Positions 1 through 64,000 of a stretch of DNA of 64,000 bases are shown here, piece after piece. The DNA comes from a virus (taxonomy: Duplodnaviria; Caudoviricetes). Location of the stretch: positions 1-64,000 of the IMG/VR virus record IMGVR_UViG_3300033075_001674; one strand, given 5' to 3'. The first letter of the stretch is position 1; each line of letters opens with the position of its first letter. The notes beneath the pieces were generated by a model. It was not told the origin of the DNA. It did not search any database and saw only the letters and a list, made by a program, of their open reading frames with translations. The position numbers and the translations under genes are program-made.

Positions 1-154
1 GGAATAGACCCCAACGGACTTCTCACCCCGTCCTTGGCCAGCAACCAAGGCTTATAGGGGATCGATGCCTCCCGCGGGAGACGTCCGGGCAACAAGCCCC
101 GTCACTCTCTTATGCCGCCGGGGACCCCTCTTTTGCAGCAAGAGGGGGAAGATG

Positions 155-553
155 TAACGGGGTCCCCGTGGGGTAGTGGTTGGTGACCCGCACCAGGATG
201 GCATGGGACAACGAAGGGGGGCATAGGTAGCCCTCGCGATCCCAGACCTCCTGCAGCTCCTCCTCCCACCGCTGCAGCTCCGGATGGGTCAGCTCCTTGA
301 GTACCCCACTGCGGATCTGGTACAGGACCTGGGACCACTGGAAAGCGGTCCTCGGCAGGGGGTAGGTCTCGATCTCGGGGTGCATGTCCTGGTACCAGAG
401 GAACATGGAGGCGTCTGCGGCGCTCAGGACCGCCTGCTTGGTGAGTCGGTACAGGATCCGGGACCGATTCAGGCGGCGCCAGGGCACCAGGGAGAGTAGC
501 CAGGACGCAACCAGTAGGGGGAGGGCCACCGCGATAGCGAGCTCGAACATCAT
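155..553 (-). CDS. hypothetical membrane protein (ends at in-frame TTA 157-155; standard-code stop at 110)
   Basis: Start MMFELAIAV overlaps the upstream TGA; N-terminal hydrophobic helix. The residues after the TTA run through a hairpin/promoter region. Confidence 0.6.
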
Positions 554-1206
554 TCTTCCTTTCTGAGCAGGGAATCCAGGGGGTACCCCCCGACAATCCG
601 CTCGATGCAGTGGATCAACAACGCCCTCTCCTCCGAGAGTCCGGGGGCGGAAGACATCGCGTGAGCCTGGGCCTTGTGGACCGGGGCAACCCGGCCTTTC
701 TCCCAGTACAGGAGCCCCCAGAGAGGGGGTAGGTCGGCCACCTGGATGACGTCCGGGGGACAGAAGTAGTACCGGAAGTGGCCCATCCCGAGTCCAGATC
801 TTCGGAAGGGCTTCTTCTTGTCGGCCAGGAAGTCCGCTCTGCTGGCCTTGCACTCCACCAGGTAGGAGTGGGTAGCGCTCTTCCATCCGATGGCGTCGGG
901 CTGCTCCTGGGTGCGCAGCCCCTTGTGATCCACCAGCACCACCGAGCAGCCCCGGTTGTTGCGTAGCCAGAGTCCGGCCCGCTTACAGAGCTCTGCGTGG
1001 GTGGAGGGGGCCGTCTCCTCCCCGGAGGCGTCCAGTCCCTTGTGTGGGACGTGGGGGACCACCCGGGGATCCAGCCCCCGGGTGCGCCCCCCCGCCTCCT
1101 CCCGTAGCAGGTCTGGCCTCAGGACGAAGCAGGAGTGCTCTACCGGCTTGCCGTCTTCGAGACGGTGGGGCTGCCCGCAGAAGGCGGGGGCAATAACCGC
1201 CGACAC
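550..1206 (-). CDS. PD-(D/E)XK-fold protein, MmcB-like phage family
   Basis: Motif EQPDAIGW...LVECKASRADFLADKKKPFR...GMG.FRYY.CP...LP..WGLL. Confidence 0.65.
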   Translation of the reverse strand: MSAVIAPAFCGQPHRLEDGKPVEHSCFVLRPDLLREEAGGRTRGLDPRVVPHVPHKGLDASGEETAPSTHAELCKRAGLWLRNNRGCSVVLVDHKGLRTQEQPDAIGWKSATHSYLVECKASRADFLADKKKPFRRSGLGMGHFRYYFCPPDVIQVADLPPLWGLLYWEKGRVAPVHKAQAHAMSSAPGLSEERALLIHCIERIVGGYPLDSLLRKEE

Positions 1207-1673
1207 AGGCAGACCACCGGGGACCAGGCCCCGTCGATCTTGGCGATGCCGAATAGCTTGGGGGTATCACCCCCCTGGCTGAGCAGGGCGATCCCGAGGC
1301 GGCGATCCACCCGAACAGCCACCCCCTTCTCCGCTCCGCAGCGGTAGTCCTTGCCTTCCAGGGGGTCCTGGATGTTCGGACCGTCTTCCGTGTGCCCGAA
1401 GAACACCCCGTTGCTGCGCAGGGTATGGATCTGGTCCACCCCGATGGCCTCCGGAAGCAGCCGGCGGAGGTTGGCCATGTCTTGCTCCGCCTCCTTCGCG
1501 TAGTTGCGGGAGCTCTCCATGACCCTGGAAGGGTCCACCTGGCGCTGCAGGGACTGGGTGAGGTTGAGGAGCATCTCCTGCACCGCAGCGGTCACCTTGA
1601 ACCGCTCGGGGGAGGGGGCGGATACGCAGTGAGCATCGGTGTCGGGGGGGCAAACAGCGGCAGGGTCGGTCAT
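1194..1673 (-). CDS. hypothetical protein (ends at TTA 1196-1194; standard-code TAG at 1140)
   Basis: ATG 1673 is coupled to the upstream TGA; coding-like up to the TTA, which lies 10 nt inside the next gene. Confidence 0.55.
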
Positions 1674-61639: not shown

Positions 61640-63059
61640 TGCCCACCAGAGCGGTGATCTGGTCAGAGAGGGCGTCGTCGGCGGCTACCTTCTTCCGACG
61701 AGGCTTGGGCTGGGGCTCCGGTGGGGTGTAGGTCGGAGGGTCCATCGTGCTCTCGTCGTCCTCCTGAATGACTCGCTGAGCCTGGCTTTCCTGGATGGCT
61801 TCCAGGAAGGAGAAGTCGGTGCAGGGCACCGCGTTGATGCGGAAGTTGGGCACCGCGGTCTCCCGGGAGGTCCGCCAGAGGATGGTCGCCGTGTTGTCCA
61901 CCTTCGAGGCCGCGACCCTCATCAGGTGCGTGCAGTCCTGCCCCACCGAGTCGGAGAAGGCCACGTCGTCGCTCTCCCCTTCGGTGTCATCGATCGCTGC
62001 CTTGTTGCTGACCTTACGGTTCGCCTGGATGGTCCCGAGCACAGGCACGTGTTCGTAGAGAGCTACGCTACGAAGCGCCCTGCTGATACCCTGCACCCTC
62101 TCGTGATCGGCCTTGGTTTTCTGGGGGCTGCTCATCAGGTAGATGCCGTCGACCACCACGATCCGGGGGCGGTAGTGACGGATCTTGCCGAGGAGCCAGG
62201 CCACGGAGTCCATCCGGGAGGGAGCGTCCTGCCCGCTGACGCAGATGAGCCGGTAGTTCATCTGCTGGACCATCATCTCCACGTCGGCCACGGTCTGCTT
62301 CATCCGGGCGTAGTCGGAGTGGGACAGGTTGTAGGTAGTCAGGTCGGTGTACGGCAGGTTGGCGAGGAAGGCGAGGACGCGGCGCCAGATCTGCTCCTTC
62401 GGCATCTCCTTCGAGTAGACGAGCACGGGGTAGCCCGACAGGAAGTAGAACGACACGAAGAACAGGAGGAGGAAGCTTTTCTTGTTCTTCGGACGTCCGT
62501 AGAGGATCGCGTAATCCTCGTCCTCCATGCCGAGGGTCCAGCGGTTCCTGCGCAGCTCTGGCCAGGGCCAGGGGAGTACGGGCAGCTCCCCCCGCAATCC
62601 CTTGTCGTAGTTCTCCGCCGTGTCCCTGACGCCCGTATCCACCGAGCTGTCCGCGTTCTCGTGTCCCTGGTTCAGCAGCTCGGCTATCTGCTCCTGCACC
62701 CCTGCCAGGTAGGACAGGATGTTGGGGTTGTAGTTGTCGGTGAGGTCCCGGCTCATCCTCGCCCCGAGTGCCCGAGCCTCCCGTACCGCGCTCCCTTGCT
62801 TGCATGCCGCCACGAGGTCCTGGATGCGAGCGCTCCCGGGATCAGGGAGCTCGATCTCCGGGAAGTAGGAGGAGACCATGCTGAGCGAAGGGGTCTGTCC
62901 TCTGGTGGCGGCGTTCTCGTAGTAGTCCTGCAGGAACCCGTAGACGATGTTCCCCTCACCGGTAGCCAGGTGTTTCTCCGACAGCCCCCGCGCAGCGAGA
63001 TCGCCGAAGTTGCCCTCGCGGATGGTCTTGGAGAGCAGGATGAGGTCCAGGTTGCTCAC
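61629..63059 (-). CDS. DnaB-like replicative helicase
   Basis: YGRPKNKKS (variant Walker A); SKEM; VVDGIYL; QANR; SDS..QD. Confidence 0.85.
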   Translation of the reverse strand: MSNLDLILLSKTIREGNFGDLAARGLSEKHLATGEGNIVYGFLQDYYENAATRGQTPSLSMVSSYFPEIELPDPGSARIQDLVAACKQGSAVREARALGARMSRDLTDNYNPNILSYLAGVQEQIAELLNQGHENADSSVDTGVRDTAENYDKGLRGELPVLPWPWPELRRNRWTLGMEDEDYAILYGRPKNKKSFLLLFFVSFYFLSGYPVLVYSKEMPKEQIWRRVLAFLANLPYTDLTTYNLSHSDYARMKQTVADVEMMVQQMNYRLICVSGQDAPSRMDSVAWLLGKIRHYRPRIVVVDGIYLMSSPQKTKADHERVQGISRALRSVALYEHVPVLGTIQANRKVSNKAAIDDTEGESDDVAFSDSVGQDCTHLMRVAASKVDNTATILWRTSRETAVPNFRINAVPCTDFSFLEAIQESQAQRVIQEDDESTMDPPTYTPPEPQPKPRRKKVAADDALSDQITALVGSAS

Positions 63060-63403
63060 TTCGCGTCCTCCAGGAAGTCGTTGATGCTCGGAACGTTCAC
63101 ACCCCCTGGAGACGCCTTCTCCAGGGGGGAGGTGAAGACAGGAGGGGCAGCGGGGGTTTCCGTAGCGGGCGTCTCCGCAGGGGTGGTGGCGCCGACCATC
63201 TTGCAGACTTCGATCTCCACGAGGCGCACCAGCTTCGCGTGCAGCTCCCTGATCTCCGGCGTGATGGGCACCTTCCTTGGCACCCCGGGGATGACGACCT
63301 CCATCCCCTCGTAGAAGTGAACCGTTGCGGTGAGGGAGAGCCCCTCGAACGTCACGTTCGACGCTGCCGCCACGGTAGCCTTGCCCAGCAGTGCTTCAAT
63401 CAT
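63056..63403 (-). CDS. hypothetical protein
   Basis: Coupled to its neighbours. Confidence 0.6.
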   Translation of the reverse strand: MIEALLGKATVAAASNVTFEGLSLTATVHFYEGMEVVIPGVPRKVPITPEIRELHAKLVRLVEIEVCKMVGATTPAETPATETPAAPPVFTSPLEKASPGGVNVPSINDFLEDAK

Positions 63404-63848
63404 GCGGTCTCCTCGTTGGCAGACCGTAGCGCTCGATGCGGGTGAACGAGGTGCTACGGGTAGTCAGAGTCTTCGCATCCTCCTCGGAGATCAAGTCTTC
63501 GCGCACCGCCTTGCGCAAAGCCTCGGAAGAAAGCGTGGGTTCCAGGTCCACCGAGCCACCGAGCTCGATGATCCGGTCGGGCCCCGCCTCCTCCATGAGC
63601 TTGCGGAGGGCCGGAGGGTTGATGCGCTGTGAGGAGGAGGTCTTCTGGAAGGGGCCGAGCGACTTGTCTCCGCGCCTCGCGTGGGTCTCCAGCGCATCCA
63701 GGGACTCTTTGAGTTCCTTGATCATGTCCTCCATGTGCTCCACGAGATCTGGGTTCATGGCGCAGAAGCGCTCCCAGGCCCTCTGCGCGGACTCGTAGCG
63801 TTCGAGGGCAGCTTGCTCTTCTTCGGTGTAGGGTTTGTTGTCTTCCAT
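63396..63848 (-). CDS. hypothetical protein
   Basis: GGAGG SD and TGATG coupling at MEDNK. Confidence 0.6.
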   Translation of the reverse strand: MEDNKPYTEEEQAALERYESAQRAWERFCAMNPDLVEHMEDMIKELKESLDALETHARRGDKSLGPFQKTSSSQRINPPALRKLMEEAGPDRIIELGGSVDLEPTLSSEALRKAVREDLISEEDAKTLTTRSTSFTRIERYGLPTRRPHD

Positions 63849-64000
63849 CACGCCTCCCGTGAGATCTTCTCTCGAAGTTTCCACATGCTCAGCGCCCGCT
63901 GCAGGCAGCGGACCAGGACCATCTTCTCGCGATCGATATCCTCGCTGGCCCCGTAGGTCTGAACGTCTCGCATGCTGGGCCCCAGCAGCGCTCGGTACTC
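63848..64000 (-). CDS. 3' end of a gene entering from outside the window
   Basis: Open frame EYRALL...ISREA* ending at TGA 63850-63848. Confidence 0.55.
   Translation of the reverse strand, partial: EYRALLGPSMRDVQTYGASEDIDREKMVLVRCLQRALSMWKLREKISREA

Follow-up and report, generated by a model that had tools for sequence, protein, structure and literature searches.

At the level of sequence it is established that TTA, a leucine codon in the standard code, terminates translation units in the lineage of a tailed phage (Duplodnaviria; Caudoviricetes) represented by the IMG/VR virus contig IMGVR_UViG_3300033075_001674. The stretch under study, hereafter the window, is the whole of the first 64 kb of this 108,475-bp contig (65% guanine plus cytosine (GC); CheckV completeness 59%). 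Considering the stop codons, the only tRNA of the phage (anticodon CUA) and the Pth2-like gene that adjoins this tRNA, we favour, at a probability of roughly 60%, a joint reading in which UUA terminates translation through a reader of its own, UAG is a working stop that is under-used on account of the phage's own amber suppressor, and the Pth2-like gene and tRNA(CUA) form a UAG-gated cassette. No close DNA relative was found among 50,697 phage records, and scans of IMG/VR with single proteins returned zero relatives. Related phages surfaced only via protein-database matches and alignment-based scans, on metagenome contigs at 30-80% protein identity (L007/L009, which are G001, L008, L010/L011, and L018-L021), and these provide most of the comparisons below.

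When TTA was permitted as a stop, the gene model of the window contained 63 genes, ending in TGA (43), TTA (14), TAA (5), and TAG (1), which agrees with the preliminary description of this DNA, where about 65 genes with mostly TGA and a few TAA stops had been counted from the letters and open reading frames (ORFs) alone. Two further TAG-ended ORFs in the window lie outside the model, namely an HNH endonuclease ORF (57313-57801, minus strand) and the Pth2-like gene (37571-37969, plus strand). Over the whole contig the stops are 70 TGA, 21 TTA, 9 TAA, and 5 TAG, so that TTA accounts for approximately 20% of them (21/106) and TAG for 5-7%. By using a codon model self-trained on the long ORFs of the contig, we asked for each codon whether the in-frame coding signal goes on or stops afterwards. 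TTA stood at the end of the signal in seven cases, in mid-gene in none, and was ambiguous in three, and ATA, the most stop-like sense codon, gave 4 end, 10 mid-gene, and 6 ambiguous cases (TTA versus ATA, Fisher p = 0.004). The corresponding end fractions were 0.80 for TGA, 0.70 for TTA, 0.57 for TAA, and 0.20 for ATA. In a stricter variant, in which the frame of the codon must be the best of six, TTA was again never found in mid-gene (4 end, 2 ambiguous). A simple gene finder gave 106 genes with a score of 14442 when TTA was added as a fourth stop, as compared with 97 genes and 13793 under code 11; when TAG was treated as sense instead, the score was lower and the genes fewer. Ordinary junctions follow directly on TTA in several places, such as TTATG at 6645, TTAggATG at 48889, and TTA followed by a ribosome-binding site and ATG at 27744. 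Four genes in the window that seemed to end in TAG had been said to carry an in-frame TTA 10-18 codons earlier; this holds at distances of 9 to 17 codons (Table 1), and it is only by reading through TTA that these genes appear to end in TAG.

Comparison with the relatives gave the same picture. We examined 59,427 distinct aligned codons in conserved gene interiors of the phage and its relatives, with gene-model queries for the census; whole-ORF six-frame tblastn was too noisy owing to shadow frames. TTA did not occur in these interiors at all, and CTA, TTG, and ATA occurred 194, 421, and 58 times, respectively. Among 69 orthologue pairs with matched C-termini, 19 involve TTA, which is paired with TGA in 10, TAG in 4, TAA in 2, and TTA in 3. 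Orthologues end in TGA within 0-2 residues of the phage TTA for genes 22878-23351, 25828-26475, 27474-27746, 56575-56751, 66609-67193, and 89879-91120, and the orthologues of the TTA-ended genes 66013-66570 and 76088-76672 end in TAG. The reverse case, TTA in relatives where the phage has TGA, was also observed (e.g., 74295-75500 and 42224-43720). The 413-residue protein encoded by 89879-91120 has homologues of 406 and 423 residues, the longer of which has TTA at the equivalent spot, and the 51-residue extension that the standard code would add beyond the TTA of this gene found no match. UUA is thus absent from conserved gene interiors and sits where homologues have stops, as in a leucine-to-stop change. 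Searches of Pfam and PHROGs with the TTA-ended proteins gave almost no matches, and domain ends were therefore unusable as evidence. The features of the window that bear on these questions are collected in Table 1.

Table 1. Positions in the window of TTA codons that end genes, of TAG codons discussed in the text, and of the Pth2-like gene and tRNA(CUA)
Feature	Position	Strand	Gene or ORF	Observation
TTA	155..157	-	155-553	Coding signal stops; next standard stop 14 codons on
TTA	1194..1196	-	1194-1673	Apparent TAG end 1140 is 17 codons further
TTA	6645..6647	+	6378-6647	Overlaps next start (TTATG); coding score 0.53 upstream, -0.52 downstream; next standard stop 155 codons on, within next gene
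TTA	12245..12247	+	11573-12247	Apparent TAG end 12295 is 15 codons further; next gene starts at 12268
TTA	14035..14037	+	13696-14037	Separates this gene from same-frame gene 14086-14862; coding signal dips after TTA; sigma-factor-like match entirely in downstream part
TTA	16218..16220	+	16038-16220	Weak 60-residue ORF with low gene score; least certain of the set
TTA	23349..23351	+	22878-23351	L010 orthologue has TGA about 2 residues away
TTA	25775..25777	+	25280-25777	Apparent TAG end 25807 is 9 codons further
TTA	26473..26475	+	25828-26475	215 residues; L010 (215 residues) and L021 orthologues have TGA at same residue
TTA	27744..27746	+	27474-27746	L010 orthologue has TGA about 2 residues off; next standard stop 121 codons on
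TTA	28990..28992	+	27772-28992	Apparent TAG end 29025 is 10 codons further; by tblastn, L011 (and L010) frame meets TTA before any standard stop, with poor tail alignment; in later gene model, L010 orthologue ends in TAA
TTA	37218..37220	+	35769-37220	SNF2 helicase, then CGA TGA; orthologue ends within a few residues in TAA (L018), TAG (L019), or TTA (L020)
TTA	48889..48891	+	44986-48891	1301 residues; coding score -1.02 afterwards; ATG at 48894
TTA	56575..56577	-	56575-56751	G001 orthologue has TGA at same residue
TAG	31405..31407	+	29044-31407	787-residue InPase-domain protein; L010, L020, and L021 orthologues have TGA 15-20 residues earlier
TAG	37616..37618	+	37571-37969	Sole TAG credible as sense or read-through codon; Ala, Ser, or Pro in orthologues
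TAG	57313..57315	-	57313-57801	Ends HNH endonuclease ORF; Pfam HNH_3/HNH match
Pth2-like gene	37571..37969	+		Ribosome-binding site and TTG start; TAG as codon 16; overlaps tRNA; first stop TAG 37967-37969
tRNA, anticodon CUA (amber-suppressor type)	37886..37959	+		ARAGORN and Rfam, 64 bits

Some further observations on TTA-ended genes may be recorded here. The base 3' of the 21 terminating TTAs of the contig is C in 10, G in 7, T in 4, and A in none, and the four bases are about equally frequent after TGA. Certain TTAs have a tandem-stop look, with a standard stop one codon further on (TTA CGA TGA at 37218-37226 of the window and TTA CGG TAG at L007:9988-9996). At 102934-103974 of the contig (L004:2934-3974), a standard-code ORF of 346 codons comprises a P-loop kinase-like half and a HAD/PNK3P phosphatase half with an in-frame TTA between them, and the stand-alone phosphatase structure 3l8h aligns starting just past this TTA. 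This ORF probably represents two genes in the same frame.

The status of TAG is less simple than had been supposed. The preliminary description held that TAG is nearly absent as a terminator and that TTA occupies its share of the stops. TAG is indeed scarce, but it probably ends the gene at 31407 and, outside the window, ends those at 75513, 99073, 106400, and 106947, one of which is backed by an orthologue (that of gene 75513-76055 has TGA no more than 2 residues away), and in the relative G001 it provides 5 of 40 stops (12.5%). As compared with the Myxococcus phage Mx8 (67.7% GC; 14 of 85 stops in annotated coding sequences), a check of stop usage that the preliminary description had proposed, the deficit in the phage is only modest (5-7 of 107; Fisher p = 0.036 for 7/107), and for the pooled lineage it is 14/203 versus 14/85 (p = 0.017). 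The TAG share is about 11-12% in G002, a Myxococcales genome bin of 70% GC, and overall TAG is used approximately 2.5-fold less than in GC-matched standard-code genomes. Judged from these sequence comparisons, the deficit is real but modest, and TAG is under-used, not abolished, and still a working terminator. The idea that TTA fills the place of TAG finds some support in the shares of the two codons and in the pairing of TTA with TAG at 4 of 16 orthologous ends (7% expected, p ~ 0.02), which comes from just three gene families, but it goes too far in that UAG still ends genes both here and in G001. With regard to code 15, in which TAG is read as sense, the phage has a suppressor tRNA(CUA) of its own, but neither many in-frame TAGs nor a loss of TAG as terminator.

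The TAG at 31407 had been thought to split a domain, which is not borne out, since about 40 residues lie between the end of the InPase domain and this TAG, the orthologues in three relatives stop earlier (Table 1), and nothing is conserved downstream. After this TAG there is a good ribosome-binding site with GTG at 31435, coding signal is weak over the 216 open in-frame codons that follow, and the downstream ORF has no relatives. We also considered homology across this TAG and rejected it, since the BLAST alignments that pass over the codon are mere extensions and not real homology. On these grounds of sequence the TAG at 31407 probably truly ends the InPase-domain protein, although it may be read through.

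Of the new findings, the conserved cassette in which the Pth2-like gene, bearing a UAG of its own, adjoins tRNA(CUA) is the most interesting. In the phage, the Pth2-like frame (frame 2) has a strong coding signal of 0.39-0.45 per codon and a GC content at third codon positions of 0.87 from approximately 37590 to 37800. There is no start codon in this frame past the TAG at 37616, and a strong ribosome-binding site with TTG lies upstream of it, at 37571. The match of the phage copy to Pfam PTH2 (PF01981) is weak (20.5 bits, E = 6e-4; the curated cut-off is 23), and PTH2 matches were obtained in three of the four copies (best E = 1.4e-7), that of L019 also carrying a precomputed PTH2 match; a PDB sequence search with the protein gave no match. 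In L018, L019, and L021 the gene is uninterrupted, with 42-65% identity (65% for L018). Of the 59,427 conserved interior codons two are TAG, one being that at 37616 and the other an alignment artefact. The view that sense TAG is rare was well founded, though only one of the three candidates first put forward is supported, and this one sits in a regulatory-looking cassette. L018, L019, and L021 also have the tRNA; 11 pairs of its cloverleaf are preserved by compensatory changes, the anticodon loop (UUCUAAA) does not vary, and in all four phages the tRNA starts at the conserved ...LAG end of the Pth2-like gene; no tRNA-Leu(UAA) is present on the contig. In every carrier of the cassette the Pth2-like ORF extends at its 3' end into the tRNA gene (37860-37969 in the window; L018:3700-3792; L019:960-1052). 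Considering this overlap, the Pth2-like mRNA would lack a stop codon if the tRNA were excised from the transcript. The distribution of the cassette is patchy, as it is absent at the equivalent site in L020, L199, and L202 (the L202/L010 phage). These relatives also have TTA stops, implying that TTA termination does not depend on a cassette at that site.

Taken together, the joint reading would work as follows. The phage's own amber suppressor would make UAG a leaky stop, and TAG would have become under-used for this reason, some former TAG or TAA ends now being TTA. UUA termination would be a property separate from this under-use, and its reader, which is not on the 59%-complete contig, may be supplied by the host or encoded in the part of the phage genome that the contig lacks. 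The single in-frame UAG would tie the output of the Pth2-like gene to the neighbouring tRNA, a small regulatory use and not a bulk reassignment. As for the reader, a factor of release factor 2 (RF2) type that reads the second codon position less strictly appears most likely, which would account for an effect on UUA that spares UUG. A factor of release factor 1 (RF1) type takes A or G in the third position, and if it had shifted to U in the second position, UUG should be hit too. The loss of UUG expected from such a retargeting was not seen, as TTG is a common sense codon (421 conserved interior positions; 5.4 per 1000 codons). It has been reported that UUA-only termination goes with RF2-type factors changed at Ser204, and termination at both UUA and UUG with RF1-type changes (PMC12574857). 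Given that TTG is still sense here and that the published UUA-only cases rest on RF2 Ser204, we infer that an RF2-type reader is to be favoured. A search of the 108 kb for a phage-encoded release factor revealed no RF-1 or PCRF domain.

Several observations weigh against this joint reading. The shortfall of TAG is statistically weak (p = 0.036 with a single comparator phage), and it does not track the cassette, because L010 and L020, which lack the cassette at the site, also have no TAG stops, and G001, the cassette status of which is not established, has 12% TAG. A leaky UAG might predict back-up stops near TAG ends, and none were found, the median distance to the next in-frame stop being 66 codons. 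Comparison with 65 reference tRNAs did not single out an isotype for tRNA(CUA), Trp, Lys, Thr, and Phe all being at approximately 0.7 similarity, and its discriminator base is U in the phage and G in the relatives. In addition, no relative has the TAG at codon 16, which might stem from a recent nonsense mutation or from an error in the assembly of this one genome.

Among other explanations, the one that survives best, though we think it unlikely, is that the under-use of TAG arose by chance or composition and is unrelated to tRNA(CUA), while TTA is a fourth stop drawing on all three standard stops; the tRNA would then serve another end, such as countering host defence or reading through selected genes. 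The modest significance of the shortfall and the 12.5% TAG in G001 speak for it, and so do the pairing of TTA mostly with TGA (10/16) and the TGA share, which is also below that of Mx8 (66% versus 81%). It would also suit the patchy occurrence of the cassette, given that all relatives nonetheless use TTA stops. On the other hand, TAG is low not only in the phage but also in the pooled relatives, and the sole in-frame TAG directly adjoins tRNA(CUA), a coincidence that is hard to credit.

An improbable alternative is that UUA is a hungry or unassigned codon in a GC-rich host, because tRNA-Leu(UAA) is missing, scarce, or uncharged, and that genes end by ribosome stalling, peptidyl-tRNA drop-off, and hydrolysis with no release factor involved, the Pth2-like enzyme, gated by UAG and tRNA(CUA), doing or assisting the hydrolysis. 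The conservation of this gene with the tRNA in four related phages makes such a route worth testing, and it would also accord with a phage that has no tRNA-Leu(UAA) and with phage-like tRNA arrays in a Myxococcales genome bin that cover other leucine codons and not UUA (see below). There is a precedent in Streptomyces, where decoding of UUA hangs on one tRNA, where drop-off followed by Pth cleavage is among the outcomes proposed in its absence, and whose phages largely avoid UUA (PMC10732093). Against this stand the relatives with TTA stops and no cassette at the site (L020, L199, and the L202/L010 phage). Moreover, drop-off of long peptidyl-tRNAs is inefficient, yet a protein of 1301 residues ends in TTA here, and stalled ribosomes would normally draw tmRNA tagging. 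Still more doubtful in our view is a two-part change of decoding, in which UUA termination is independent of release factors, the cell having no usable tRNA for this codon, and a mobile UAG-gated Pth2-like/tRNA(CUA) cassette supplies or tunes chain release. Finally, the proposal of the preliminary description that an RF1-type factor of host or phage has shifted from UAG to UUA, with TTA replacing TAG and TAG freed for tRNA(CUA), fares worst and is very hard to maintain: the under-use of TAG beside a 20% share of TTA, the excess of TTA-TAG pairs, the conserved tRNA(CUA), and the proposal that, in two lineages of green-algal mitochondria, a modified mtRF1a reads both UUA and UUG (PMC12574857) would suit it, but UAG still ends genes in the phage (at 75513, opposite the TGA of an orthologue) and in relatives, sense TAG is almost absent (one in 59,427 conserved codons), TTG is often used as a sense codon although UUA and UUG are taken together in the RF1-type precedent, reading TAG as sense lowers the score of the gene model, and no release factor is encoded on the contig.

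Leads to the host were sought by a genome scan, in which distant relatives (31-34% identity) were found on contigs binned with Acidimicrobiia, Myxococcales, and Anaerolineales, such binning being no proof of host. In the Myxococcales bin G002 a 92-kb contig holds a distant relative at 34% identity. This bin carries tRNA-Leu(UAA), its RF1 is canonical (PVT...GRIHTS), and its RF2 keeps SPF and has RRQTAF in place of RRHTSF. The replacement by Gln of the near-invariant His of RRHT(S/A)F, next to the codon-reading SPF loop, was observed in 5 of 30 genomes of one class (genes L129, L131, L144, L151, and L153 in G002, G020, G010, G033, and G022, respectively), with no link to TTA use established. 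We also looked for TTA stops in the chromosome of G002. A loose test gave 8 end and 0 mid-gene cases, and the best-of-six test gave 0 end, 1 ambiguous, and 0 mid-gene in 1.06 Mb; the TTA-ended ORFs of the loose test had no Pfam matches, and the signal was rejected, TTA being simply almost unused there. Two phage-like contigs binned with G002, C120 (L082) and C137 (L081 and L023), have tRNA arrays, with 27 tRNAs on one and three leucine tRNAs on the other; the leucine anticodons CAG, GAG, and CAA are among them, and there is none for UUA. In the 24 kb of C137 that were read, TTA was seen at gene ends and not in mid-gene.

Other genes of the phage also have unusual structures. A family-A DNA polymerase lies in two pieces on the minus strand (58011-59468 and 56769-57269), with the HNH ORF 57313-57801 between them, and is likewise split in the relative G001. 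A search of Rfam at the gathering score detected no group I intron between the halves, and the term intron used in the preliminary description is unproven. There is also a gene for a fused multi-subunit RNA polymerase of 3017 residues (L002/L003, contig 76902-85955 and 92085-95189; L007), and Pfam marks on the gene calls of relatives indicate intein or LAGLIDADG insertions in the large terminase and in the RNA polymerase of the relatives.

The use of UUA as a stop is known from labyrinthulean (Thraustochytrium) mitochondria (NCBI table 23) and peDinoflagellate plastids (PMC12574857). Our case resembles these in that the same leucine codon has become a stop, is found inside no conserved gene, and lies at the stops of homologues, while UUG stays leucine. 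It differs in that it concerns a tailed phage of a GC-rich bacterium that keeps the standard stops, including UAG. The organellar cases are tied to an RF2 Ser204 substitution, and the contig of the phage has no release factor in which to look for it. Leu-to-stop changes have been published for organelles only, the plastid case of 2025 being called the first outside mitochondria (PMC12574857), and our literature search found no paper on TTA/UUA as a stop in a phage or bacterium. Phages recoded at TAG (code 15; crAss-like and Lak phages) share with ours a phage tRNA(CUA), depletion of TAG, and in-frame TAG near code-changing genes, and the path proposed for them leads from TAG depletion through acquisition of a suppressor tRNA to in-frame stops (Borges et al., 10.1101/2021.08.26.457843), so that our phage would fit an early stage. 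Those phages are AT-rich, and in their late genes in-frame TAGs number from tens to hundreds, whereas ours is GC-rich with a single one, still ends genes with TAG, and has turned a sense codon into a stop, which those phages have not. The Streptomyces bldA system and phage Hau3 (PMC10732093) are likewise GC-rich and almost without UUA, but there UUA is still leucine, occurs at one or two sites inside genes, and triggers bypassing, whereas here it marks about a fifth of gene ends, at which orthologues have ordinary stops.

Standard gene callers mis-annotate genomes of this kind, since approximately 20% of the proteins are extended, downstream genes are swallowed or displaced, and false TAG ends appear. 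The combination of TTA stops, an amber-suppressor tRNA, and a UAG-gated Pth2-like gene would constitute a compact system for learning how a virus copes with non-standard termination or brings it about, and it may be a possible source of parts for engineered codes.

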